64,000 nt of DNA from an uncultured Candidatus Saccharibacteria bacterium (GTDB lineage: Bacteria; Patescibacteriota; Minisyncoccia; Phycocordibacterales; UBA2100): contig CAYNQE010000001.1 of NCBI GenBank assembly GCA_964399345.1, positions 17,060 to 81,059 on the forward strand, read 5' to 3'. The stretch's first letter is position 1. Every line of letters starts with the position of its first letter. The notes beneath the pieces are model-generated. The model saw only the letters and a program-made list of their open reading frames with translations. It was not told the origin of the DNA and did no database searches. The position numbers and the translations under genes were made by a program. Below, piece after piece: positions 3,241 to 45,543 of this stretch.

Positions 3241-4545
3241 ATGGAACGAACAATAATTTCAGACTTAACTAAAAAGAAAGGGGAGAAGGTACACATCGCA
3301 GGATGGGTAGATGTTCGTCGTGATCATGGGAAACTTACCTTCCTAGTTATCCGAGACCGTAGTGGAGTGGTTCAAGGTGTTGTCAAAGGAGATCTTACTG
3401 ACGAGACTAAAGACATACGAGAGCAATGGGTGGTAAGTATTCAAGGCACCGTAAACGAACGACCTGAGAGTATGATTAAGGACGAGCAAAACGGTGATGT
3501 TGAATTACTTGTCGAAGAAGTGCAAATTCTCTCAGAAGCTGATGAAATGCCTTTCGACTTAGATTCAGAATTAAATATAGATACATACTTAGACAACCTT
3601 CCACTAACACTACGTTCACAAAAAGCATTAGATGTATTCACAGTTCAAGCAACCATTACCGCGGCATTCCGTGAGTTCCTAACAAACGAGGGATTCAAAG
3701 AATACCAGTCACCTGCACTTGTAGGAGGAGACGCAGAAGGAGGAGCATCTGCCTTTAAAGTCGACTATTACAAAGATAAGTTAGCGTTTCTAGCAACTAG
3801 CCCTCAATTGTATAAGCAGATAATGGTAGGAACCTACGAGAGAGTGTTCAGTATTGGAAAAGTTTTTAGAGGAGAAGATCACGCAACTTCACGACACCTT
3901 TCAGAATATTCCTCCTTGGACTTTGAGATGGGCTTTATTGAAGATCACGAAGACGTTATGGAGATGACTCAAGCTGTTCACTCACATATCGCAAAGACTA
4001 TAGCTGAAAGACATCCCGACATACTTAAGAGAATGGAAGTTGAAATCCCATTAACTCCAGAAAAGTTTCCAGTAGTTACACTTAAGGAAGCACTGGAGAT
4101 TGTTGGAGCTGATGTTAACGAGCCAGATCTTGAACCTGAACACGAACGACAACTATGTGCTTGGGCTAAAGAGAATCATAAGTCTGACTATATCTTTGTT
4201 ACTCACTACCCTGTATCAAAGCGTCCTTTCTATACATACGAAGATGAAGATGCGCCAGGCACAACAAAAGGCTTTGATCTTCTTTTCCGAGGACTTGAGA
4301 TAACAACAGGAGGTCAAAGAATACACGACCATGATACTTTAGTTGAGAAGATAAAAGAGAAGGGAATGAACCCAGAACTATTCTCGTTCTATCTTCAAGC
4401 ATTTAAATTTGGAATGCCTCCTCACGGTGGTACAGGAAACGGACTAGAGCGTCTAACTCAACTTATGCTTGGACTAAAGAATGTGCGAGAAGCTACTTTA
4501 TTCCCACGTGACATGAACCGAATAGATAATCAGTTGAGTGAATAG
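3241..4545 (+). CDS. aspS: Aspartate--tRNA ligase, archaeal/type-2 form (class IIb)
   Basis: Class II motifs FRGEDHATSRHLSEY and GGQRIHD. C-terminal IKEKGMNPELFSFYLQAFKFGMPPHGGTGNGLERL closely matches archaeal-type AspRS. Length 434 aa. Confidence 0.75.
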   Translation: MERTIISDLTKKKGEKVHIAGWVDVRRDHGKLTFLVIRDRSGVVQGVVKGDLTDETKDIREQWVVSIQGTVNERPESMIKDEQNGDVELLVEEVQILSEADEMPFDLDSELNIDTYLDNLPLTLRSQKALDVFTVQATITAAFREFLTNEGFKEYQSPALVGGDAEGGASAFKVDYYKDKLAFLATSPQLYKQIMVGTYERVFSIGKVFRGEDHATSRHLSEYSSLDFEMGFIEDHEDVMEMTQAVHSHIAKTIAERHPDILKRMEVEIPLTPEKFPVVTLKEALEIVGADVNEPDLEPEHERQLCAWAKENHKSDYIFVTHYPVSKRPFYTYEDEDAPGTTKGFDLLFRGLEITTGGQRIHDHDTLVEKIKEKGMNPELFSFYLQAFKFGMPPHGGTGNGLERLTQLMLGLKNVREATLFPRDMNRIDNQLSE

Positions 4546-5262
4546 ATGTCTGACTTTACTCTAGAGCTAGAAGGTTTCCGAGGCCCACTTGGGCTTCTTC
4601 TTGATTTAATTGAAAGAGAGAAGCTTCGTATAAATGACGTGTCTCTTGCTAAAGTTTCTGACGACTACATTGAATACATTCAAGACAGGGAAGCAATTCC
4701 ACTTTCGCAAACCTCTCAGTTTGTTGTTGTAGCCTCTACTTTGCTGTTAATAAAGTCTCGCTCACTACTTCCGTCTCTTGAACTCTCAGAAGAGGAAGAC
4801 GAAGATATTAGAGATTTAGAAAATCGTCTAAAGATGTATAAGAAAGTAAGAAGAGCGACTAAGTTAATCAAAAACCGTTGGGGCAAGAAATTGTTTCTTC
4901 CAACATTTAAGCCAACGGAAATAAAATTCTCACCAGGGGGTGATGTAAAAAAAGAAAACTTGCACATTTCTTTAAAAGGCGCACTGGATGCTCTTCCTTC
5001 CTTTGACAAGGCACCTACTGCAAAGGTTAGTAAAGAAGTCTCTCTGGAGGAGATGATTGAAGATCTAACAGAGAGAATACGCTCAGCTACAACTTCCTCT
5101 TTTAATAAGATTACTGAGAAAGCTAGTAAAATAGAGGGTATTGTTAACTTTTTAGCTTTACTTGAACTAGTAAAGCGTGGGACACTAAGTGTGACCCAGG
5201 AGAAACATTTTTCTGACATTGATTTTGATAACGAGGAAGTAGACACACCACATTATGGATAG
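4546..5262 (+). CDS. scpA: Segregation and condensation protein A (kleisin)
   Basis: N-terminal LELEGFRGPLGLLLDLIEREKL, characteristic of ScpA. It is immediately followed by scpB with a 4-nt overlap. Confidence 0.75.
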   Translation: MSDFTLELEGFRGPLGLLLDLIEREKLRINDVSLAKVSDDYIEYIQDREAIPLSQTSQFVVVASTLLLIKSRSLLPSLELSEEEDEDIRDLENRLKMYKKVRRATKLIKNRWGKKLFLPTFKPTEIKFSPGGDVKKENLHISLKGALDALPSFDKAPTAKVSKEVSLEEMIEDLTERIRSATTSSFNKITEKASKIEGIVNFLALLELVKRGTLSVTQEKHFSDIDFDNEEVDTPHYG

Positions 5263-5776
5263 AAACGCACAAAAACTACAAGCACTACTGTATTCAAACG
5301 GGGGCGAGATGAAAAAGGCAGAAATAGCTTCGCTTATGGAATTAACCAAGGAAGAGGTGGAGGTTGCAATTGAAAATCTAAAATCCCACCCTCAGGGTAT
5401 TGAAATATTAGAAACTCTTGAACACGTGTCACTACGGACCTCTCAAAAATATTCCGAGTTTATTACACAAACACAAAAGAAGGACAGTGAGAAAGATGTT
5501 GGTACTGCAGGACTAGAGGTTCTTTCCATAGTCTTATACAAAAATGGAGCCTCTCGAAGTGAAATAGATTACATACGTGGAGTTAATTCTAGTGCAACGC
5601 TTAGACAGTTAATTCTACGAGGACTGCTCGAAAGATCCAAGAGCGAATCTGACTCCCGAGCCTGGGAATACAAAGTGACACCCGAATTATTAAGTCATGT
5701 AGGGGTTTCTATGGTACACGAACTCCCAGAGTATGAGACAATGAAAGAATCTCTCCAAAAAAATTATGACGACTAA
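5255..5776 (+). CDS. scpB: Segregation and condensation protein B
   Basis: Winged-helix ScpB-like N-terminus (QALLYSNGGEMKKAEIASLMEL) and operon position after scpA. Confidence 0.7.
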   Translation: MDRNAQKLQALLYSNGGEMKKAEIASLMELTKEEVEVAIENLKSHPQGIEILETLEHVSLRTSQKYSEFITQTQKKDSEKDVGTAGLEVLSIVLYKNGASRSEIDYIRGVNSSATLRQLILRGLLERSKSESDSRAWEYKVTPELLSHVGVSMVHELPEYETMKESLQKNYDD

Positions 5777-6656
5777 AAACATCCCCTTAGCATACATGGC
5801 AATCATTTCACTTTTCGGTACTACCGGGCTTGTTTTTGCTACATTAAATAGCGAAGCACAACCTGAGCTTCAAATGGCTAGTGCCTCAACTGCATTGGAA
5901 ACTCAAAAGGAAGTTGAAATTGAAGCGCAAGCCGCATATGTATATGACATGGTGGAAGGCATGGTACTTTATGAAAAAAGCGGAACTGTACAACTTCCGT
6001 TAGCATCTATAACCAAAGTTGCAGTAGCCACCTTGGCAAGACAGTTCCTGGACATGAATGAGTCAATCACTTTCACTCCGAGGGATTTAAGTACCGAGGG
6101 CGATTCCGGATTTAAAGACGGGGAAACATGGAATACTGAAAACCTGCTGGAATTCACACTGATGACTTCTTCAAACGACGGAGCAACAGCCCTTGGAAGG
6201 AAATTAGAGGAGTCTACTGATGTGGATATAGTTACACTTTTAAATATCCAAGCAGAGACATTGGAATTAAACCAAACCTATTTTACAAACCCCACGGGTC
6301 TTGATAATAGCGAACTATATAGCGGCTCTTACGGATCTGCTAAAGATGTAACACAACTGCTTTCCTATGCGTATAAAACCGCTCCAGAAATTTTCTTTTC
6401 AACATCTCAAGAGACTCAGATATTTAAGAACTCAATTGGGGAAATTTATGAAGCGAAAAATACAAACCAGGCAATAGGGGAACTCCCTGGATTGGTTTTT
6501 GGTAAAACCGGATTCACAGATCTTGCAGGAGGAAATCTTGGTGTAGTTGTAGAAACCGAACCAGGACACGCATATATAATAGTTGTATTAGGCTCAAGCG
6601 TGGACGGAAGATTTGATGACATTGTTAAACTTTATAAAACAGTATTATGGAATTAG
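5766..6656 (+). CDS. D-alanyl-D-alanine carboxypeptidase (serine-type, PBP5/6 family)
   Basis: SxxK motif SITK and SxN motif SSND, with an N-terminal signal/TM segment. Confidence 0.7.
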   Translation: MTTKNIPLAYMAIISLFGTTGLVFATLNSEAQPELQMASASTALETQKEVEIEAQAAYVYDMVEGMVLYEKSGTVQLPLASITKVAVATLARQFLDMNESITFTPRDLSTEGDSGFKDGETWNTENLLEFTLMTSSNDGATALGRKLEESTDVDIVTLLNIQAETLELNQTYFTNPTGLDNSELYSGSYGSAKDVTQLLSYAYKTAPEIFFSTSQETQIFKNSIGEIYEAKNTNQAIGELPGLVFGKTGFTDLAGGNLGVVVETEPGHAYIIVVLGSSVDGRFDDIVKLYKTVLWN

Positions 6657-7705
6657 ATAACTTAATCAAAGTAATGATGCCAGCAGTAATTGCCTTTACT
6701 GTAGGTATTGGAATAACCCCGACAATTTCACATTACTTATATAAATACCGAGCTTGGAAAAAAGAAGGTGGAAAAACAGCCATGGACGGCAGTACTGCTG
6801 AAGTATTTAATTCATTACATAAAGAGAAAGAAAGAGAGGCTCCACGAATGGGAGGTTTGGTAATAATATTTAGTGCACTAATAACTATTCTTGGAATTTC
6901 ATTGGTTGCCTATATTTTCCCAAATGATTCTACTTCAAAATTAGATTTCTTCTCTCGGAGTCAAACCTGGATACCCGTTATGACATTATTCGCAGGAGCG
7001 CTAGTTGGATTTATCGACGACTTCTTAGAAATAAAAAGAAGGGGAGGACTTTCCCTAAGAAGGCGCCTACTTTTTGTACTCACACTTTCCTTTCTGATAG
7101 GTTGGTGGTTCCACAATAAGTTGGATATTACTTCTATAGGAATACCGTTTGATGATTCACTTGAAATAGGATGGCTTGTGATTCCTTTGTTTATGCTTAT
7201 TTCTCTTTCTATTTACGCAAGTGGAACAATTGACGGAATAGACGGTCTTTCAGGAGGAGTATTTGCAATGATTTTTTCAGCGTACTCTTTAATTGCCCTT
7301 GTTCAAGATCAAATAAACTTAGCTGCCTTTTCTGCAATGATTGTTGGTGCAATTCTTGCCTTCTTATGGTTTAACGTTCCGCCGGCACGATTTTATATGA
7401 CTGAGACTGGATCAATGGCACTCACTCTAACTCTCGCAACAATCGCCTTTATGACAGACTCACTAGGAGGAGGGATCGGAATTGCAGCACTGCCAATAAT
7501 TGGCTTCCTTCTTGTTGCAACAGTTGCAACAACTATTGCTCAATTACTTTCAAAAAAATTCCTCGGAAGAAAACTTCTTCGCGTTGCACCCCTTCATCAT
7601 CACTTTGAAGCAATTGGGTGGCCTTCTACTAAAGTTGTCATGAGGTACTGGATTCTAGGTGCTATGTTTGCTTTCTTTGGTGTGATTTTTGCACTCATTG
7701 GATAA
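6647..7705 (+). CDS. mraY: Phospho-N-acetylmuramoyl-pentapeptide transferase
   Basis: Polytopic membrane protein with GFIDDFLEIKRR and GTIDGIDGLSGG motifs. Sits in the dcw context before ftsW and murG. Confidence 0.85.
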   Translation: MELDNLIKVMMPAVIAFTVGIGITPTISHYLYKYRAWKKEGGKTAMDGSTAEVFNSLHKEKEREAPRMGGLVIIFSALITILGISLVAYIFPNDSTSKLDFFSRSQTWIPVMTLFAGALVGFIDDFLEIKRRGGLSLRRRLLFVLTLSFLIGWWFHNKLDITSIGIPFDDSLEIGWLVIPLFMLISLSIYASGTIDGIDGLSGGVFAMIFSAYSLIALVQDQINLAAFSAMIVGAILAFLWFNVPPARFYMTETGSMALTLTLATIAFMTDSLGGGIGIAALPIIGFLLVATVATTIAQLLSKKFLGRKLLRVAPLHHHFEAIGWPSTKVVMRYWILGAMFAFFGVIFALIG

Positions 7706-8808: not shown

Positions 8809-9963
8809 TTGCGATATACTAGGTGTATGAAAATCGTTTTTACAGGTGCTGGTACCGGTGGTCATTTCTACCCTCTAATTGCAGTGGCAGAGGAAATTCA
8901 CAATATCGTAGAAGAAGACAGACTACTTACCCCTGAACTTTTTTACATTGCTCCTCACTTGTTAGACAGTGATGCTCTTGCTGAGCAAAATATTACTTGG
9001 AAAAAAAGCAGTGCGGGTAAGGTTCGCCGCTACTTTTCTATACGTAATGTATTTGATGTTTTTAAAACTCTCTTCGGAACTGTTCAGGCAACAATTCAAT
9101 TGTTCTTTTTATATCCTGACGTTGTCTTTAGTAAAGGAGGCTACGCGAGTGTTCCAACTACAATTGCAGCAAGAATTTTAAATATTCCTGTAATCATTCA
9201 CGAATCAGACGCACATCCGGGAAAAGCAAACCTACTTGCCTCTAAGTGGGCAAAGGCTGTAGCTATTTCATTTCCTGGAGTACGAGAGTATTTTAAAAAT
9301 GTAGATGACTCTAAAATCGCGTTAGTAGGAAATCCTATAAGGCGAGCGCTCTTTAGGCCTGCAAGTGAAGGTGCCCACTCTTTTCTTAAACTCGACTCTA
9401 TAAAACCAACTATTCTGATCCTTGGTGGATCACAAGGTGCTACTTCGATTAACTCTGTGATATTAGACGCACTACCTGAACTTCTAGAGAAATACCAAGT
9501 GATTCATCAAACAGGAAAAGAAAATCTGGAAACAATTGAGGGTCTTGCTCGAGTTATCCTAAAAGATCACCCCCACAAGGGTAACTATAAAGTATTTGGG
9601 TACTTAAATACTTTGGCCACAAGAATGTCTGCTGGAGTTGCGTCCATTGTTGTTATGCGAGCAGGCGCCGGGCATATATTTGAAACAGCAGCCTGGGGGA
9701 TACCTTCAATTGTTATTCCAATTCCTGAGGAGTTCTCCCACGACCAAACCAGAAACGCTTTTGCCTACGCAAGAGACGGGGCTGCAGTTGTGCTAAAGCA
9801 AAAGAATTTAAGTGAAAATCTACTAGTTGCAGAAATTGGGAGAATACTTGGAAGCCAAGAAATCCAAGATGATATGAGGAAGGCGGCTTTAGAATTTTCA
9901 CGCCCTGATGCGGCTAAAAAATTAGCTCACATGATTATAAAAACAGCACTTGAACATGAATAA
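8809..9963 (+). CDS. murG: UDP-N-acetylglucosamine--N-acetylmuramyl-(pentapeptide) pyrophosphoryl-undecaprenol N-acetylglucosamine transferase. The real start may be the internal MKIVF at 8827.
   Basis: KIVFTGAGTGGHFYPLIAVAEE N-terminal glycosyltransferase-28 motif. Confidence 0.85.
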   Translation: MRYTRCMKIVFTGAGTGGHFYPLIAVAEEIHNIVEEDRLLTPELFYIAPHLLDSDALAEQNITWKKSSAGKVRRYFSIRNVFDVFKTLFGTVQATIQLFFLYPDVVFSKGGYASVPTTIAARILNIPVIIHESDAHPGKANLLASKWAKAVAISFPGVREYFKNVDDSKIALVGNPIRRALFRPASEGAHSFLKLDSIKPTILILGGSQGATSINSVILDALPELLEKYQVIHQTGKENLETIEGLARVILKDHPHKGNYKVFGYLNTLATRMSAGVASIVVMRAGAGHIFETAAWGIPSIVIPIPEEFSHDQTRNAFAYARDGAAVVLKQKNLSENLLVAEIGRILGSQEIQDDMRKAALEFSRPDAAKKLAHMIIKTALEHE

Positions 9964-39516: not shown

Positions 39517-39763
39517 CCGAAACACAATTAAGCGGTCTTTGACCGACTTCTGGACTGTCCCCGATATACTGTACACACCCAGCTCCGCTTAGAGAGTTGG
39601 CGCAGAATTGCCACGTGCTCTCGCCGTGGGGAGTCCGCCACCGCAGTGGCGGACAATGGACAGCACGCGGAGCGTTCCGCTTTGTTAAAGTTAATCGCTC
39701 CGCGATTGTTTCTCAAAAAAAGTTCGAGCAAATGATATAATCTCCGCACCAAAATAAAACCTG

Positions 39764-39836
39764 TCCGCCCTCTAGGGCTCGAACCTAGGACAATCTCCTT
39801 AAGAGGGAGCTACTCTACCAACTGAGTTAAGGGCGG
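39764..39836 (-). tRNA. tRNA-Lys (anticodon CTT)
   Basis: 73-nt cloverleaf on the minus strand. D-arm ACTC-AGTTGGTA-GAGT. Anticodon loop CTCTTAA. T-arm CTAGG-TTCGAGC-CCTAG. Confidence 0.75.
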
Positions 39837-39935: not shown

Positions 39936-40571
39936 ATGGCTAAGGCACACAAGAAGATTAACATGGCCTGGTCTCCAAAATTATCTTACGCAATAGGAAT
40001 AATAGCCTCTGATGGTAATTTGTCCCCTGATAGAAGGCATATAAACATAACATCAAAAGATCTCTCTATTGTTGAAAGTTGTAAAAGCGCACTAGAGATA
40101 GATAACAAAATAGGAAGGAAGAGCCGCGAACGTTCTTCCGAAAAGGAATATTATGTCCTTCAATTTGGAAGTGTATTGTTTTATCAATTCTTGCTTGACC
40201 TGGGACTTCACCCAAACAAATCAAAAACACTGAAAAAAGTAGACGTTCCTAATGAATATTTCTCACATTTTTTACGAGGACTTATGAATGGTGATGGAAC
40301 AATAACATCCTTTAAGCATCCTTATAGCAAACTACTTCAAACAAGAATATCTTTGGCATCTGCAAGTCCGGATTTTCTAATCTGGATACACGGTAAAATA
40401 CGAAAACTTGTAAATATTGAAGGTGGTTGGATATACAATGCAAAAAAGAAAAATATCTCCATGCTTACATTTGGCAAAAGAGACACTATACTAGTCTGCA
40501 AATTTATGTATAATAAATCGGCTACATACAAGCTTATGCGTAAATATGATTGCATAGAAAAGTATCTTTAA
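39936..40571 (+). CDS. Double-motif (monomeric) LAGLIDADG homing endonuclease
   Basis: Two LAGLIDADG helices, YAIGIIASDGNL and HFLRGLMNGDGTI, about 100 aa apart. 211 aa. It fills the tRNA-Lys/tRNA-Leu spacer exactly. Confidence 0.8.
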   Translation: MAKAHKKINMAWSPKLSYAIGIIASDGNLSPDRRHINITSKDLSIVESCKSALEIDNKIGRKSRERSSEKEYYVLQFGSVLFYQFLLDLGLHPNKSKTLKKVDVPNEYFSHFLRGLMNGDGTITSFKHPYSKLLQTRISLASASPDFLIWIHGKIRKLVNIEGGWIYNAKKKNISMLTFGKRDTILVCKFMYNKSATYKLMRKYDCIEKYL

Positions 40572-40574
40572 GTT

Positions 40575-40659
40575 GGGCGAGTGGTGAAATTGGTATACAC
40601 GCGTGGTTTAGGACCACGTTCCGCAAGGAGTGGAGGTTCAAGTCCTCTCTCGCCCACCA
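40575..40659 (+). tRNA. tRNA-Leu (anticodon TAG), CCA encoded
   Basis: Acceptor GGGCGAG/CTCGCCC. Anticodon stem CGTGG/CCACG with loop TTTAGGA. Long variable arm. Ends ACCA. Confidence 0.8.
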
Positions 40660-40667
40660 GAATAGAA

Positions 40668-40812
40668 CTTGTCCGCCTACGCACTGGACGTGTCGCCTCG
40701 TTCCACTCAGCAACCTAAATACAAACTCATTCCCTTTCAACTTTTTACGACTCCCCCAGACCCCCACCGCAGGGAAAAGGAAAGGTGAGGAAATGGTTTG
40801 TTTTTTGGTTTA
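40668..40812 (+). repeat. Repeat A: about 145 bp left-flank copy of an inverted repeat pair bracketing the DGR. Begins 9 nt after tRNA-Leu(UAG).
   Basis: The reverse complement of 43553-43690 aligns base-for-base with this segment at about 80% identity, for example cgcctacgca[c/t]tggac...gttccactc...acccccaccgc[a/g]ggg...ggaaatg. Confidence 0.7.
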
Positions 40813-40827
40813 CTACTACGTAGTTAA

Positions 40828-41826
40828 CTACTTATTTAAATGTGTAGAAAGGGAGCGCGTGTACTCTTTTAACTCATAAGCATCTCCATGTCCGAGTAGT
40901 CCCAAGTATGATTGTAAAGTCCATTGTTTGCCATCAACTTCACTAATTCTCTTTAACATTCTTCGTTTTGTTACACTGCGTAGTACACGGTGAGTCGGAA
41001 AGTGAACCCAACCTAGAAAGTCAACTCCTGAGGAGAATGTTTCAATGGAAGTCTTTCGTTTATGCAATTTAAGTTGTAACTCTTCTTTTAGAAACGCACC
41101 TATGCACCGATGTATTTCCAACAACTCTTGTCTGTCTCGCGAAAGAATCACAAAATCGTCAGCATAACGAATATAATATTTAGCTTTCAGTTTGTGTTTA
41201 ACAAACTTATCAAGCTCATTCATATATACATTAACAAAGAGTTGCGAAGTGAGGTTACCAAGTGGTAATCCTTTTCTTTTCTCACCAGAGCTGAAACTCC
41301 CAACAATCTCTTCTAAAAGCGAAATTATATCTTTGTCAGAAATGTGTTTCTTCAAAATATTCATTAAGATAGAGTGGCCAATGGAGGCAAAGAATTTTCG
41401 TATATCGCTTTTAAATACCCAAACTGTTTTCGTGTTGTTCTTTGAAACTTTGTTTACAAAACTGCGAAGCCGATCAATTGCTCTGTGTGTCCCTTTGTTG
41501 TTTCTGCAAGAATATGAGTCAGCGATGAACGTATTGTCAAAATATGGATAGAGTTGTCTATATATTGCATGGTGAAATAGTCTGTCTCGCACGCTTGCCT
41601 TATGAATATTTCTTGGTTTGGGATCGGAAATGTTAAAAGCTTCGTATCTACCGTGCTTGTATGTTTTGTTTTTTAAATCTTGGTGTAATGAAAGTATGTT
41701 ATCCATTAGATGTAATTGGAACTCCTGCACGTCCTTACGTTTTCGTTTACCGTTTAAGAATTCCTTCCACGCACCGAGGAGATTTTCTACACAGATGATA
41801 TCATTGTAGGTATGAACAAATTTCAT
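40828..41826 (-). CDS. DGR-type reverse transcriptase
   Basis: RT motifs KHGRYEAFNISDPKPRNIHKASVRDRLFHHAI (domains 1-2) and YIRYADDFVIL (YADD catalytic box). 332 aa with no maturase or endonuclease domain. A TR/VR pair lies adjacent. Confidence 0.85.
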   Translation of the reverse strand: MKFVHTYNDIICVENLLGAWKEFLNGKRKRKDVQEFQLHLMDNILSLHQDLKNKTYKHGRYEAFNISDPKPRNIHKASVRDRLFHHAIYRQLYPYFDNTFIADSYSCRNNKGTHRAIDRLRSFVNKVSKNNTKTVWVFKSDIRKFFASIGHSILMNILKKHISDKDIISLLEEIVGSFSSGEKRKGLPLGNLTSQLFVNVYMNELDKFVKHKLKAKYYIRYADDFVILSRDRQELLEIHRCIGAFLKEELQLKLHKRKTSIETFSSGVDFLGWVHFPTHRVLRSVTKRRMLKRISEVDGKQWTLQSYLGLLGHGDAYELKEYTRSLSTHLNK

Positions 41827-41890
41827 CCTCAGAATCCTACCCCCCCCCTCAGCGATTTCGCAATCAAAGCTAATTCCCGTTATATTAAAA

Positions 41891-42223
41891 CTGAAAGATG
41901 TATATAGACTATGGCAGGAATATCTTGTTCATTTTCCGAAACAAAATCGCTATACCTTAGGGAGCAAAATTGATGAAGTATTCTTGATTGCTATAGAGTA
42001 CTGTTTTCTTGCCAGCTACGCCCCAAGGGATACTAAAATTATTCATCTCAACCGCTGTATTTCGCGAGTTGACTTGCTCAAACTTCTTTTGCAACTAGCG
42101 TGGGAAATACAAGCTTTAGATACTAAAAAATATACAGTACTTAGTGAGCAACTACAGGAAGTTGGAAGAATGCTTGGTGGGTGGAGAAAGGGGTTGGAAG
42201 TTAAAAACTCCCCACAAAAGTGA
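41891..42223 (+). CDS. avd: Avd-like accessory variability determinant (four-helix-bundle family). It is on the strand opposite the RT. The start is uncertain, with no in-frame ATG. A TTG at 41984 or CTG at 41891 could serve.
   Basis: In-frame translation ...KDVYRLWQEYLVHFPKQNRYTLGSKIDEVFLIAIEY...LLKLLLQLAWEIQALDTKKYTVLSEQLQEVGRMLGGWRKGL matches Avd/'23S rRNA intervening sequence protein' family features (WQ...FPK.E.Y.LGSQI and ...EV.KML.GL). Confidence 0.5.
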   Translation: MKDVYRLWQEYLVHFPKQNRYTLGSKIDEVFLIAIEYCFLASYAPRDTKIIHLNRCISRVDLLKLLLQLAWEIQALDTKKYTVLSEQLQEVGRMLGGWRKGLEVKNSPQK

Positions 42224-42235
42224 GGAGAAATATGT

Positions 42236-42351
42236 GCAGTAGCTAAAGACACGGTTGCCAGCATTCCAGACATTGCCGTCAAGCGGATTCGCATTGAAGT
42301 TCCACTTGGAATCGTCGGAGTTCCAGTTCGCGTTGACCACGAAGCCTTCAC
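42236..42351 (-). repeat. DGR template repeat (TR), 116 bp
   Basis: Collinear with VR 42686-42801 and no indels. 13 of 14 internal mismatches lie at TR positions that are A on the minus (coding-sense) strand. Confidence 0.8.
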
Positions 42352-42607
42352 TCGTAATGTGACCAATACCATCTGTACCACCACCCATTGAATATTCTCT
42401 GGGCTGTATATTATTCAGGACGTTATAAATCCTTCAGTATCAATCACCAACTGCATTTATTTTTTCAGAGATACAACAGATATACTCTTGGAGAAACCAT
42501 AGTCTAACTCCAACTCTGACATTTGTTTTACCTAAAGCTTCTTGCCCGAGCCATAACCAGAACATAATAAAAACTTCGTTTTGCAGTATAGCAAAATCCC
42601 TTATGTG

Positions 42608-42648
42608 TAAAAATAGCCCCTCAAACGCTTGAAGCGTCAAAGGGGCTA
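42608..42648 (-). terminator. Rho-independent terminator for the DGR target transcript
   Basis: Nested hairpin agcccct...acgcttgaagcgt...aggggct followed by an ATTTTTA run on the minus strand. Confidence 0.5.
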
Positions 42649-42655
42649 AGGGACA

Positions 42656-42678
42656 AAGGACTGAAGGACTCAGTCCTT
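42656..42678 (-). promoter_or_regulatory. DGR VR-proximal hairpin (9-bp stem, 5-nt loop), 4 nt downstream of the target stop codon
   Basis: aaggactga-aggac-tcagtcctt is perfectly self-complementary. Its position relative to the VR matches the hairpin/cruciform that supports retrohoming in characterised DGRs. Confidence 0.6.
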
Positions 42679-42682
42679 AGGT

Positions 42683-43288
42683 TCAGCAGTTGCTAAAGAC
42701 ACGGCTGCCAGCAGGCCAGACAAAGCCGTCAAGCGGACTCGCACTGAAGTACCACTTGGAACCGTCGGAGTCCCAGATCGCGATGAACACGAAGCCTCCA
42801 CGGGGCTTGTTCACGTCAGGAACGAAGAAGAACAAGTTAGCAGCATAGTTTTCAACCAACAGGTCGCCTTCCGCTTCGCCACTTGGCTGTAGAGCAGTTA
42901 AACTGTCCATATGTGCCAGTAGAACCCTGATATCGCGATATATGGATTCAGGATATTCCTTCATAATATCCCACTCTCTCGTTTGAGTTTCCAGTTTGCG
43001 ATAGTGAGTCGCGATTTCAGGAACTGAAGCAATCGGTTTCGCCACCGGCAAAATTAGACTTGCCATATTCGGCGACGACCAACGTCCTTCTTTGCGAGTC
43101 TTGAAAGCGGTTTTTGGCACAAACTTTTTGGTTCGTGCCGGAATGACTGCCCCTTTCTTGAGTTCGCCCAGCTGAGAGACGGCCACAATTTTTGTCCGCC
43201 CAGCAAGCAATGCGTCAATACCCACCTCTCCACCGTGGATATTCCAGACTGCCTGTATTCGGTCGGGAGTTTTGTTAGCTTTTGACAT
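42683..43288 (-). CDS. DGR target (variable) protein, 201 aa, with a C-terminal CLec-like variable region and no signal peptide
   Basis: Carries the VR. C-terminal W..DGSKW.F.......DG.VW.AGSRV pattern. GC content is visibly higher than the flanking genes. Confidence 0.7.
   Translation of the reverse strand: MSKANKTPDRIQAVWNIHGGEVGIDALLAGRTKIVAVSQLGELKKGAVIPARTKKFVPKTAFKTRKEGRWSSPNMASLILPVAKPIASVPEIATHYRKLETQTREWDIMKEYPESIYRDIRVLLAHMDSLTALQPSGEAEGDLLVENYAANLFFFVPDVNKPRGGFVFIAIWDSDGSKWYFSASPLDGFVWPAGSRVFSNC
42686..42801 (-). repeat. DGR variable repeat (VR) at the 3' end of the target gene
   Basis: Same alignment as listed for the TR. The VR encodes the C-terminal ...FVFIAIWDSDGSKWYFSASPLDGFVWPAGSRVFSNC. 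The TR in the same frame reads Asn-rich ...VVNANWNSDDSKWNFNANPLDGNVWNAGNRVFSYC. Confidence 0.8.
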
Positions 43289-43552
43289 TGTCTTCTCCTT
43301 TATCCGTATAGGATATTAAGGTACACCTTTGCCCGTATAGAACAAAAGTACTAGACCGTGTGGTCTTAGCTACAAACAACCGAAATTTCGGTAACTTGTA
43401 GCTAGGACCAACAAATATTATGTAAATGAACTTCATGCATATTATACCACACTTCGTGGAGTATGCAAGACTAACTTCGCAAATCACGAAAAACAGAGAG
43501 CTCGTACGCTTTGCGTATAAGAGAACTGTTTTGTAGTGACGCAGCGAACCCG

Positions 43553-43690
43553 AAAAACAAACACATTTCCTTCTTTCTTCTTTCCCCGCGGTGGGGGTAT
43601 GGGGGAAGCCGTAAAAAATTGAAAGGAAATGTTTTGTTTTTTGGTCGCCGAGTGGAACAAGGCGGTAAGTCCAATGCGTAGGCGTATGTT
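43553..43690 (-). repeat. Repeat B: right-flank inverted copy of repeat A. It contains an internal 20-bp-arm palindrome (43559-43580 and 43625-43644).
   Basis: Same alignment as listed for repeat A. Arms cccgaaaaacaaacacatttcc and ggaaatgttttgttttttgg are near-perfect reverse complements. Confidence 0.7.
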
Positions 43691-43806
43691 TAGAGATGCC
43701 ACAGATTCGGCGCGTGAGATTAGTGTTTGCTTTGAAAATAGGTTCTACCTTGGTGAAATAGACGCACAAATAAGTAAAAACGCACCTTACAGGTGCGTTT
43801 TTACTT

Positions 43807-44040
43807 TTAGATTCCAAACGTACTTTTTATAATACCTAGTATTCCAAAGACGGACGCCATAATGAAGATCCCTAATACTCCATATATCATATGCTGAACC
43901 CCTTCAGATCTTTTATCAGGACTATTCATGTTCAGCAAAAAGATCACGAGACCCCAGGTGAACATAAAAACTCCGGCTGCGAATATAACTAGTATTAAAG
44001 GATTAATTATTGAATCAACAATTTTATCCATTACCTCCAT
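43807..44040 (-). CDS. Small two-TM secreted protein, T4SS-pilin-like. Tandem paralog 1 of 5.
   Basis: Two hydrophobic helices. Shares a conserved C-terminal stretch with the other four tandem paralogs (compare 44043-44387 and 44481-44798). Confidence 0.4.
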   Translation of the reverse strand: MEVMDKIVDSIINPLILVIFAAGVFMFTWGLVIFLLNMNSPDKRSEGVQHMIYGVLGIFIMASVFGILGIIKSTFGI

Positions 44041-44042
44041 GC

Positions 44043-44387
44043 CTATCTCCTAATTTCCTTAGGAACAATTGGGGCTGAGCCCGTTACCTCAAATGTCTCT
44101 TGTAGTATTCGAATAATTCCCCAGATACTTACCATAACGAATATCGCTATAATTCCCATAAACATTTGGTTTATGGCCTTTCCTTTTGCCTCTGAATCGT
44201 CAGACTTTAATATATAGCTAGCCAATCCCCAAAAGAAATATAAAACGGCAAGAGCCAAAATTATTGGGATGATTCCGTTTATAATACCGCTAATTGTGTT
44301 TAATGTATTTCCAAGAGTAACGGCGGATGCTGTTGTAGGCATCATTACTGCAACTCCGGTTAATATAAGTGCGTTTATTTTTTGCAT
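44043..44387 (-). CDS. Small two-TM secreted protein, T4SS-pilin-like. Tandem paralog 2 of 5.
   Basis: Signal peptide then two TM helices. Conserved ...VMVSIWGIIRILQ tail shared with paralog 3. Confidence 0.45.
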   Translation of the reverse strand: MQKINALILTGVAVMMPTTASAVTLGNTLNTISGIINGIIPIILALAVLYFFWGLASYILKSDDSEAKGKAINQMFMGIIAIFVMVSIWGIIRILQETFEVTGSAPIVPKEIRR

Positions 44388-44480
44388 TGTATGTTAATAA
44401 AACTAATAAAATACGTTTGAATGTACTTACCTATATGGTAGCACCGTTACTAGTAGATTTAATATATTTTGGGGATATCG

Positions 44481-44798
44481 TTAAAGACCACCAAAAAGAG
44501 TCGACTGAAGTATTCGGATGATTCCCCATATACTTACCATAACGAAAAGAATAATAACCCCCCAAACCATAGAATCCTTGAGCTCTTTTTTCTTCTCCGC
44601 AGAGTCTGCATCGTAATTAAATAGTCCTGAGGCTACTCTCCAGAAGAAGAACGCAAGAGCAAGGCTAAATAATGCAGTGGTTGCTAGATTAAGCATGTCC
44701 ACTGCCCAATACGAAAGTTCCTTAAATGTTTTTGCAGCAGCAAATGAGACCTCAAAACTTAAAAGGAAAGTTGCTACGATAAAAAAAAGATTTTTCAT
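44481..44798 (-). CDS. Small two-TM secreted protein, T4SS-pilin-like. Tandem paralog 3 of 5.
   Basis: Signal peptide then two TM helices. ...VMVSIWGIIRILQ tail. Confidence 0.45.
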   Translation of the reverse strand: MKNLFFIVATFLLSFEVSFAAAKTFKELSYWAVDMLNLATTALFSLALAFFFWRVASGLFNYDADSAEKKKELKDSMVWGVIILFVMVSIWGIIRILQSTLFGGL

Positions 44799-44799
44799 A

Positions 44800-45159
44800 T
44801 TAAACAGCTAGAATTGGATCAATCGTTCCCTTAATTAAAGTAGCTAAGGCAAACGCGCCAAGAAGTAATGCCACTCCTATAACTACCCATAAGAAGTTAC
44901 TTTTTGCCTCCCCAAGTTTATCTGAGTTTCCTCGTGCCATTACAAACAAAAATCCTGAATATACTATGAACAATACTGCTACTGGAAATAGTATTTGTGT
45001 AACCACATTCAAAAATGCTTCTGTGAAGCCAGCTACGGTATCTAGGCCGTTGCATAATGGGTTTTGAAACCCTTTTCCCCCTCCTCTGGAACAAGCGGCA
45101 GAAACAACTCCTGGAACGGACAAAAGAAACATAGATGTAGAGAACAATATTTTTTTCAT
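44800..45159 (-). CDS. Small two-TM secreted protein, T4SS-pilin-like. Tandem paralog 4 of 5.
   Basis: Signal peptide, Cys-containing segment, two TM helices. Confidence 0.4.
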   Translation of the reverse strand: MKKILFSTSMFLLSVPGVVSAACSRGGGKGFQNPLCNGLDTVAGFTEAFLNVVTQILFPVAVLFIVYSGFLFVMARGNSDKLGEAKSNFLWVVIGVALLLGAFALATLIKGTIDPILAV

Positions 45160-45171
45160 ATAAATATAATA

Positions 45172-45543
45172 TCACTTTTTATACAAAGCGTATAAAAGGA
45201 ATGCGGATATAACTACTAAAAGTGCTGACGAGGTTAATCCACTGAGCGTGTTGCCAACAAGTTGTGCTATCGCCCAAAGAGCTAAGAATACGGTTCCTCC
45301 TATTAACGTGGTGAGTGCCATTGATTTTGCTTTCGTAAGACCTGCGGGATTGCCTTGTGCTGAGACAAACAAAAACCCTGTCCACACTATTAACACTATT
45401 AATGCAGGAGTACCCACATAGATAACTCCATTAACGAAAGCTTCTAAGATTTCTCTTACAAATCTAAGGAGTAAAGGGTTTTCAAAAGTAGCAGCACTTA
45501 CTATCCCCGGTAGAAAAAGAACGGCTAAATATATTAATCTCAT
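45172..45543 (-). CDS. Small two-TM secreted protein, T4SS-pilin-like. Tandem paralog 5 of 5.
   Basis: Signal peptide and two TM helices, similar to paralog 4. Confidence 0.4.
   Translation of the reverse strand: MRLIYLAVLFLPGIVSAATFENPLLLRFVREILEAFVNGVIYVGTPALIVLIVWTGFLFVSAQGNPAGLTKAKSMALTTLIGGTVFLALWAIAQLVGNTLSGLTSSALLVVISAFLLYALYKK

Follow-up and report, generated by a model that had tools for sequence, protein, structure and literature searches.

Long inverted repeats around a DGR cassette of the Patescibacteria recur at the boundaries of some related cassettes

The DGR cassette in the window (the whole stretch of 64 kb analysed here) is bracketed by two long inverted repeats, called arms A and B below, and homologous arms were found on both flanks of other DGR cassettes. 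The comparison of these loci shows that some DGR cassettes have this repeat as a conserved element at their boundaries. We consider it reasonably probable that the repeats of the window are decayed inverted end-repeats of about 240 nt, and that such end-repeats enclose the DGR module in a small family of integrative cassettes of Patescibacteria.

An inverted-repeat scan paired positions 40674-40811 of the forward strand with 43547-43684 of the reverse strand (138 nt, 72% complementary without gaps). When gaps were allowed, the two copies aligned over 141 nt with 82% identity (MAFFT and blastn, E = 1.3e-31), and their Smith-Waterman score was 80, compared with 8.5 +/- 1.3 for shuffled sequences. 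These values bear out the original prediction, which had described inverted repeats of about 80% identity (40668-40812 and 43553-43690) around the DGR. It had also placed a palindrome in copy B at 43559-43580 and 43625-43644; the palindrome is real, but its halves lie at 43553-43572 and 43623-43642 and are 85% complementary, and its AT-rich stem reaches about 28 bp. The extent of about 140 nt that had been proposed for the repeats holds for their inner part, but homologous arms show that copy B is about 222 nt long (to about 43768), that copy A is truncated and that a third arm exists.

Arm A (40668-40811, forward strand from its outer to its inner end) is a truncated b-type arm, which retains the inner ~140 nt and has lost the outer ~95 nt. 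The family profile matches it at profile positions 90-251 only, and covariance model R1 gives 73 bits at 40709-40812. Its order is the mid block CGCCTACGCACTGGAC, a degenerate small hairpin and the long AT-rich palindrome with a C-rich loop. Arm B (43547-43768, reverse strand when read inward) is a complete arm of the b type, aligned with the arms of loci L038, L036, L020, L108 and L093, and it corresponds to family profile positions 2-259 at 43769-43529 (E = 2.8e-46). Its outer end, ...GACGCACA, lies at 43768 and its outer block contains GGTAGAACCTATTTTC and CACGCGCCG; further inward follow the mid block ACGCCTACGCATTGGAC, a small hairpin and the long palindrome, again with a C-rich loop. An ORF of 180 aa (43275-43817) crosses arm B and is spurious, although public data list it as a gene. 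Searched against 1.84 billion protein representatives, it matched only itself and one spurious repetitive protein.

The sequence between the two arms has the features of a DGR, namely an RT of the DGR clade, a TR/VR pair with adenine bias and Avd. All of these parts were located there, as had been proposed, and no second RT, TR or VR was found within the 64 kb. The reverse transcriptase gene (40828-41826, reverse strand, PF00078) has its stop codon 17 nt from arm A, and its product has thousands of homologues among the DGR RTs of Patescibacteria. Avd (about 41891-42223, forward strand; PF22296 bAvd, 52.7 bits) is encoded antisense between TR and RT, with an uncertain start codon, as no in-frame ATG, GTG or TTG precedes 41984. 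TR (42236-42351, reverse strand) forms a direct repeat of 116 nt with VR (42686-42801), 87% identical, and 13 of the 15 mismatches fall at adenines of TR. VR is part of the target gene (42683-43288, reverse strand), which encodes a protein of 201 aa without a match in Pfam or PHROG. The target leader contains a palindrome of 50 nt (43361-43410, reverse strand), which belongs to the conserved core cassette and is kept in the closest relative, L001, at 4357-4406. A putative target promoter (43441-43468, reverse strand) consists of TTGCAT, a spacer of 16 nt and TATAAT with an upstream TG; it was read directly off the sequence and is conserved in L001, and a consensus promoter scan did not call it. 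It lies on the cassette side of arm B, downstream of that arm. On the whole, the DGR of the window still looks functional.

We then built a profile from copies A and B only and ran it on loci fetched by RT similarity. As a result, both flanks of other DGR cassettes were matched, in L038 (5319-5407 and 9223-9310, E = 2e-8), L040, L034, L036 and L020. Self-comparison of L038 gave two arms of 242 nt (5174-5415 and 9214-9455) that are 100% identical to each other. The bracketing repeats of L020 and L040 are 115-117 nt long and also 100% identical, with the contig starting inside the arm. L093, whose RT is 85% identical to that of L020, carries one arm, which lies downstream of the RT gene and comprises the outer block together with a diverged hairpin. 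L108 (RT 70% identical to that of the window) has a full arm at 5254-5532, which is 3.7 kb from the RT, points away from it and faces genes for Shedu, an HTH protein and an Eco57I-type methylase; no partner arm was found at this locus. In an NJ tree of the RTs, which is star-like and weakly resolved, the arm-bearing loci L038/L034/L040, L036 and L020 make up one clade, separate from the clade of the window and L001. If this poorly resolved tree is taken as it stands, arm-bearers in two clades need several losses of the arms or a transfer of arms between cassettes. The divergence of the arms approximately follows that of the RTs. Moreover, the arms form a gradient of decay, from perfect pairs in L038 and L020, through 82% identity with truncation in the window, to the inner ~20 nt in L001, and such a gradient fits an ageing mobile element.

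A modular layout is common to the arms of six lineages. From outside to inside, it comprises an end in ...CA, an outer block of ~130 nt, a small GC hairpin, an AT-rich palindrome of ~100 nt enclosing a conserved C-rich loop, and the motif TTCGC(T/C)AC, which lies innermost, at the edge of the cassette. The outer end reads CACCGCA in L038, CACTCGCA in L093, TCTGCACA in L036 and GGACACA in L020, beside the end of arm B given above. The outer block of the family contains GCTCGAACCYAYTTT, CACGCGCSG..GTGG and ACGTACGCATTSG; a derivation of its element GCTCGAACC from a tRNA T-arm was considered but found no support, since there is no complementary stem. The small GC hairpin co-varies among the arms (CGCGAG/CTCGCG, CCGCGC/GCGCGG and, in arm B, CGCC/GGCG), and compensatory changes maintain pairing in 7 of the 29 pairs of the long stem. 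The loop is asymmetric, and relative to the outer block and the cassette its orientation in L038, L036, L020 and L108 is flipped compared with the window. This strand assignment is robust, with 106 bits on one strand and 30 on the other. Both arms of one element share the same loop orientation, which indicates that they evolve in concert.

Such structured arms could also act as signals in RNA or transcription, for example as bidirectional terminators, insulators, a long-range processing stem or a structured accessory RNA, and the original prediction had named regulatory or terminator RNAs as its alternative. The compensatory changes in the stem and a T-rich run behind the long hairpin at the inner edge of each arm would suit this idea, as would the folding of copy B, which is more stable than that of shuffled sequences (z = -3.2). 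However, copy A has a degenerate, decayed stem (z = -0.7), and the terminator scan calls neither arm, the stem of the arm hairpin being AT-rich (22-28 bp) and closing a loop of ~50 nt. A covariance search of both copies against Rfam 15 matched no family at the gathering threshold and gave generic miRNA-type hairpin matches. A match of the L108 arm to RT-3 (18 bits, threshold 40.5) was treated as generic hairpin similarity. Furthermore, the flipped loop between the window and the L038/L020 lineage, the position of the target promoter on the inner side of arm B and the lack of arms in most related DGRs, the closest included, all speak against a role in RNA, which we regard as very unlikely.

The lack of arms in relatives was then followed locus by locus. 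The RT of L001 (P0002) has 82% amino-acid identity to that of the window, and this cassette, arranged as target, TR, antisense Avd and RT, sits between rpoD and the OTCase gene with no flanking inverted repeat. DNA homology between the two loci covers 43551-43361 and 42230-40808 of the window and stops at the inner edges of arms B and A; on either side, its limit coincides exactly with the inner base of the palindrome, and L001 retains only the inner ~20 nt of an arm. The repeat is likewise absent from two further members of the window clade, L095, whose cassette lies between ligA and gatCA, and L096, where it precedes a gene for an ECF sigma factor, and from about 20 other related cassettes with full flanks; the viral RT relatives L097-L105 have no arms. 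When 24 distinct related loci with enough flank were examined by a sensitive test, long bracketing repeats were found only in the arm-bearing lineages L038/L034/L040, L036 and L020. The arms are therefore not an intrinsic DGR element of the IMH or hairpin type. The closest relatives without arms (L001, L095 and L096) occupy different genomic contexts, which indicates that core cassettes relocate, or persist, without arms.

Nor are the arms specific to DGRs, since they occur away from a DGR in L108 and in a third arm of the window. This arm C (about 39519-39750, reverse strand) is a decayed b-type arm matched by the family profile with E = 4.7e-4; its outer 61 nt align with the L108 arm at 79% identity (blastn, E = 1.8e-9), and its statistical support covers 39664-39748 only. 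Two tRNA genes flank it: about 14 nt separate its outer end, TGCGGAGATT, from the 3' end of an inverted tRNA-Lys, and on the inner side it adjoins the 3' end of tRNA-Leu(UAA). We considered whether arms A and C are halves of one arm split by an inversion and ruled this out, because arm C has its own decayed inner part, including a homologue of the loop.

Lone arms of this kind bear on another explanation, in which the arms, or the palindrome module, are small independent repeats or a pre-existing fold-back site and the DGR landed between them or in the centre, so that the bracketing is secondary. It would account for the homology of L001 and the window stopping precisely at the inner base of the palindrome on both sides, for the single L108 arm facing defence genes instead of a DGR and for arm C standing alone. 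However, no empty fold-back (an arm and its inverted copy without cargo) was found, and besides the L108 arm and arm C no lone copy turned up in the remainder of the window or in ~0.8 Mb of loci from Patescibacteria. A single arm has no inverted ends of its own, at least three lineages have an inverted pair around the DGR, and the arms have diverged roughly in step with the RTs. We therefore hold a secondary landing to be quite unlikely. Wider searches returned no further copies. The arms had no blastn match in the phage and plasmid collections, and the arm pattern had none in viral contigs. Exact-pattern scans for the repeat core were empty in viral and metagenome collections and gave three chance matches (Streptomyces, Gemmiger and Oscillospiraceae) in species-representative genomes; these collections lack the source organism, and the empty viral and metagenome scans carry little weight.

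The locus itself was compared with the syntenic loci L009, L010 and L011, found via homologues of the neighbouring SBP (66-69% amino-acid identity). They carry, in this order, GyrA, methyltransferase, SBP, pilins, tRNA cluster, RbfA and IF2, and the DGR, the HNH gene, the LAGLIDADG gene and the arm are all absent from them. In L010 and L009, a terminator hairpin (AAAAACACC...GGTGTTTTT) follows tRNA-Leu(tag) after 6-8 nt, and the empty site of the window is represented by these distant syntenic relatives only. In the window, tRNA-Leu(UAG) (40575-40659, forward strand; ARAGORN and Rfam) has its 3' end at the left boundary of the insertion, and a perfect hairpin of 16 bp with a T run (43772-43806, forward strand; inverted-repeat scan) lies at the right one. 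This hairpin probably served tRNA-Leu(UAG) as its terminator before the insertion, and a convergent pilin gene shares it. As it resembles the terminator of L010 and L009, the unit at about 40660-43768 would lie between the tRNA and its terminator. These loci bear out the earlier proposal that the DGR arrived as an insertion. The claim of a discrete unit delimited by terminal inverted repeats also holds here, and homologous repeats delimit units elsewhere. Relatives without the DGR also lack the repeats, and the repeat does not behave as a REP-like element, with three copies in 64 kb, all at this locus, and copies only near DGRs in the ~0.8 Mb of other Patescibacteria loci.

The role of the tRNA is less general. 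Copy A had been placed 9 nt past the CCA of tRNA-Leu(UAG), and indeed the similarity starts 9-14 nt after it. The proposal that the tRNA 3' end served as a classical integration site was not borne out, since a direct-repeat att signature is lacking, the window has no integrase and the other family members are not adjacent to a tRNA. A direct repeat of the tRNA-Leu 3' end was not found at the side of arm B, where an inverted similarity of 14/22 positions (CACCA..TAGAAC) exists that other lineages lack. Tested as a trait of the family, tRNA adjacency was rejected because the arms outside the window adjoin no tRNA. L009 contains two extra partial 3' ends of tRNA-Leu(tag), and these identify the tRNA-Leu(UAG) site as an insertion hotspot.

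This neighbourhood is also prone to rearrangement, and the repeats could have arisen as a one-off inverted segmental duplication unrelated to mobility, for example by a staggered-break inversion in the tRNA cluster. The tRNA-Lys of the window is inverted relative to the relatives, L011 has its whole tRNA block inverted, and HNH and LAGLIDADG genes have been inserted at the window locus, all of which would be in keeping with such an event. It is contradicted by the homologous arms that bracket DGRs in unrelated contexts of other lineages, by the defined arm end common to these lineages and by the four-way relation of junctions described below, and we judge it extremely improbable.

The outer end of the arm could be fixed in the L038/L034 lineage. 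The cassettes of L034 and L038 are 99.4% identical up to ...CACCGCA and unrelated directly beyond it. On the viral contig L102, homologues of the left flank of L038 and of the right flank of L034 adjoin (E = 3.5e-11 and 2.7e-26), forming an empty site, GAGTGGCCCGCA|CTGGATACCGG (alignment form GAGTGGCCCGCA|CTGGATACCGGTTATCGG). The left junction of L038 reads GAGTGGCCCGCAG|AAACTGAC (alignment form GAGTGGCCCGCAG|AAACTGACTTCC), the right junction of L034 reads GTTCACCGCAG|CAAATACCGG (alignment form AATAGTTCACCGCAG|CAAATACCGGTTATCGG), and an internal junction of L038, in inverted orientation, reads GTTCACCGCAG|AAACTGAC (alignment form AATAGTTCACCGCAG|AAACTGACTTCC). By their sequences, the four junctions are related as attB (L102), attL, attR and attP, the attL-like and attR-like ones being taken from two different contigs and samples (L038 and L034), and such a four-way relation is the pattern of site-specific recombination. 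The junctions show the outer end of the arm to be the exact point of DNA exchange with the target site in L038 and L034. At its own right junction, L038 is joined to a third sequence, so that the arm end has exchanged partners at least three times.

In L038, the gene of a candidate enzyme directly adjoins the arm (5010->3415). It encodes a large serine recombinase, which carries the domains Resolvase, Recombinase and Zn_ribbon_recom and matches the integrase phrog_95. The inserted unit of this lineage, ~6 kb in length, consists of two modules. In the recombinase module, an arm pair of 140 nt (I2, 99% identical) surrounds the gene of the large serine recombinase; in the DGR module, the pair of 242 nt surrounds HTH, an ORF of 188 aa, target, TR, Avd and RT. 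We compared the I2 pair with the DGR arms, and a relationship in sequence was rejected. A single inverted duplication of an att region of ~380 bp accounts for both pairs of L038. The mobile unit had been envisaged as repeat, DGR and repeat; it is bounded as proposed, but the best-preserved member is larger and includes the serine-recombinase module. A tblastn search of the 64-kb window with the L038 enzyme found no recombinase or transposase, so that the window copy is tied to the serine recombinase via the homology of the arms only. The gene is likewise absent from L036, L020, L093 and L108 as far as their contigs reach. Neither a circular junction nor an alternative orientation was observed in the assemblies, and the DGR module has one orientation only in L004, L005, L034, L036 and L038. 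Contigs break inside the arms in L020, L036 and L040, which is compatible with inversion.

The same loci can be read in another way, with the arms as terminal inverted repeats of a non-autonomous cut-and-paste transposon that carries the DGR as cargo, its DDE transposase being located elsewhere and the serine recombinase being incidental. Terminal inverted repeats are indeed present, as in a MITE. Every inferred end finishes in TG...CA, near-identical copies occur with differing flanks, and the arms are long, like ends with several binding sites. The L038 arm contains three copies of the motif YG[CGT]GGTG[AG], all in direct orientation and one of them at its very tip. They recall multi-site transposase-binding ends, but the motif was noticed post hoc and its statistic is inflated by the kinship of the arms. 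A transposase gene was seen at none of the arm-bearing loci. In L038, L034 and the window, no direct repeat was found outside the arms, and a target-site duplication was not definable at the L038 or L034 junctions, where the only shared string, CCGCA(G), belongs to the arm ends. The copy number is low for a MITE, with three arms within 64 kb at one locus and none elsewhere in ~0.8 Mb of related loci. Furthermore, the attB/attL/attR/attP relation and the internal inverted junction are predicted by site-specific recombination and not by transposition. Taken together, a transposon is an unlikely source of the arms.

Under the preferred reading of an integrative cassette with inverted end-repeats, the recombinase of L038 would integrate and excise its unit by site-specific recombination at CCGCA(G), a mechanism of integration that we infer from the junction sequences. 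With inverted sites around the DGR module, the same enzyme, or homologous recombination, could flip the module; flipping would keep the arms identical and would account for the contig breaks inside them. In the window, integration of the cassette would have separated the 3' end of tRNA-Leu(UAG) from the terminator of this gene. Arm A would later have lost its outer part, perhaps along with a recombinase module, and the arms would then have drifted to their present 82% identity. The window cassette is probably immobile now. The att sites of serine recombinases are ~40-50 bp long, and most of the 240-nt arm (~200 nt beyond the att half-site, including the palindrome loop) therefore exceeds what this mechanism needs. 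Going further, the arms might mark a new type of small integrative element, split into a recombinase module and a DGR module through inverted duplication of its att region, with its own serine recombinase flipping each in a layout reminiscent of the yeast 2-micron plasmid, so that the DGR would be both mobilised and switched in orientation. We regard this extension as possible but doubtful. If it is true, the orientation relative to replication or to outside transcription could gate mutagenic retrohoming.

If the preferred reading is true, the arms point to one way in which DGRs move between genomes. For one vehicle of DGRs, the boundaries are then defined in sequence, together with an exchange point and a candidate for the enzyme, and the movement of DGRs in reduced genomes becomes testable. 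The arm profile also serves as a search handle for other cargo of the same elements, and the L108 arm, which faces a block of Shedu and restriction-modification genes, suggests that this cargo may include defence genes. For annotation, the arms carry a warning, as ORFs called across them are spurious.

Among known systems, large-serine-recombinase integrative elements (phage-type, TnpX/TndX/CcrAB) resemble the L038 unit. They have in common with it a recombinase that has Resolvase, Recombinase and Zn-ribbon domains and is encoded at the unit's edge, the attB/attL/attR/attP junctions with a short common core (L038/L034) and a cargo unrelated to movement; unlike them, the window copy has no recombinase. 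To our knowledge, such elements have been described neither with perfect inverted repeats of 140-240 nt nor with an internal inverted attP that gives two invertible modules. A second likeness is to the yeast 2-micron plasmid (FLP/FRT), the G segment of Mu (Gin) and the C segment of P1 (Cin), in which long identical inverted repeats with recombination sites separate two unique segments and the recombinase is their own. An arrangement of the 2-micron type predicts flip-flop isomers and keeps the repeats identical. However, the L038 element has a recombinase of a different family, is integrated in the chromosome and carries a DGR as cargo, and inversion is only predicted for it.

DGRs are unusually frequent in Patescibacteria, and their horizontal transfer has been inferred from RT trees and GC content, with the vehicle rarely defined. 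Stem-loop-forming inverted repeats of MITE-like or TIR elements and of composite transposons are present at DGR loci, and mobile elements have been implicated in moving and remodelling DGRs (Dore et al. 2024, PMC10907252). Those repeats match known IS ends and form arrays within the loci that take the place of DGR components, among them the RT gene and TR (PMC10907252), whereas the arms described here make up a single conserved pair of ~240 nt around an intact cassette, and an IS matching them was not found. The canonical DGR hairpin or cruciform is short and GC-rich, lies immediately 3' of VR/IMH and acts in retrohoming (Guo 2011, PMC3240598; Wu 2018, PMC5758913). The arms are likewise inverted repeats associated with DGRs, but they lie outside the whole cassette and are absent from most related DGRs. 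The DGR literature that we consulted (PMC5758913; Roux 2021, PMC8144416; PMC10907252; Paul & Eren 2022, PMC8867640) covers the GC-rich hairpin behind VR, IS/MITE arrays at DGR loci or horizontal transfer in general, and cassette-bounding inverted repeats or a recombinase-linked DGR unit are not described in it. Compared with known integrative elements, the present ones would thus differ in their DGR cargo and in their unusual long inverted end-repeats.

The tRNA cluster beside the DGR cassette was found to hold further inserted and rearranged DNA. A third end-repeat arm, arm C, which is decayed and belongs to the same family as arms A and B that bound the cassette, occupies 39519-39750 on the minus strand between tRNA-Leu(UAA) and tRNA-Lys, and the homologue of its loop has the orientation seen in L038, a DGR cassette with well-kept arms, which is opposite to that in arms A and B. 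The adjoining tRNA-Lys (39763-39836, minus strand) is inverted in the window; in the DGR-free syntenic relative L010 all four of the tRNAs run in one direction. Two free-standing endonuclease genes also lie between the tRNA genes, one of the HNH type (PF01844/PF13392; 38962-39477) and one of the LAGLIDADG type (PF14528; 39936-40571), both on the plus strand. Since these genes sit amid tRNA genes and neither has a counterpart in the syntenic relatives L010 and L011, the cluster gathers several kinds of mobile DNA.

Other layouts were observed at the DGR-free relatives. After the one complete tRNA-Leu(UAG) at L009 (13680-14144) come two partial repeats of the tRNA's 3' end, both with a terminator-like hairpin of their own, and a run of N separates the first two; this pattern looks like the scars of repeated integration at that tRNA. 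At L011 (13280-15261), the tRNAs as a block have the reverse orientation with respect to RbfA, and a multicopper-oxidase-like gene lies between tRNA-Lys and tRNA-Leu(UAG), which is further evidence for a rearrangement-prone locus.

Within the DGR unit, the Avd frame (41840-42223, plus strand) lacks any ATG, GTG or TTG start codon ahead of 41984, and homology to bAvd extends from about 41925; translation probably starts at a rare codon, either CTG at 41891 or ATA at 41882. Avd is antisense and placed between TR and RT here, an arrangement shared by the closest DGR relative L001, by L038, by the armless cassette L095 and by L108, a locus with a lone arm facing away from its RT. The leader of the target gene contains a near-perfect palindrome of 50 nt (TGGTCTTAGCTACAA...TTGTAGCTAGGACCA; 43361-43410), kept in both sequence and position in L001 (4357-4406); it might serve as an operator or fold as RNA. 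A 180-aa ORF on the minus strand (43275-43817) crosses arm B and this leader and is annotated as a gene in public data (L004). Among 1.84 billion protein representatives it has no homologues other than itself, and it is almost certainly spurious. The "tmRNA*" called by ARAGORN at 40567-41163 takes in tRNA-Leu and arm A and runs into the RT gene; it is a false positive triggered by the tRNA.

Five genes for small membrane proteins stand in tandem (43807-45543, minus strand) in the interval from the DGR unit to the SBP gene, an array that is kept in L009-L011. Two of its ORFs (43807-44040 and 44043-44387) match PF18895 (T4SS_pilin), and a third is so annotated in L004.

Just outside the lone arm of L108 is a non-coding stretch of 620 nt (4631-5254) with several GC-rich hairpins and the repeated motif GGGTGG(A)GGGATTCG; it gave no Rfam match above threshold.

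In L038, a second inverted repeat pair (3482-3621 and 5039-5178; 140 nt, 99% identical) surrounds the large serine recombinase gene. Because one arm overlaps the 3' end of the recombinase ORF while its partner precedes the start codon, flipping at this pair could switch recombinase expression. In L034, whose cassette is near-identical, the region 3404-7504 holds genes for an OLD-family ATPase/TOPRIM protein and a UvrD-like helicase directly outside the DGR arm, followed by a second serine recombinase fragment with 76% DNA identity to the recombinase of L102, a viral contig with an empty site; the ATPase and helicase genes form a Gabija-like pair.
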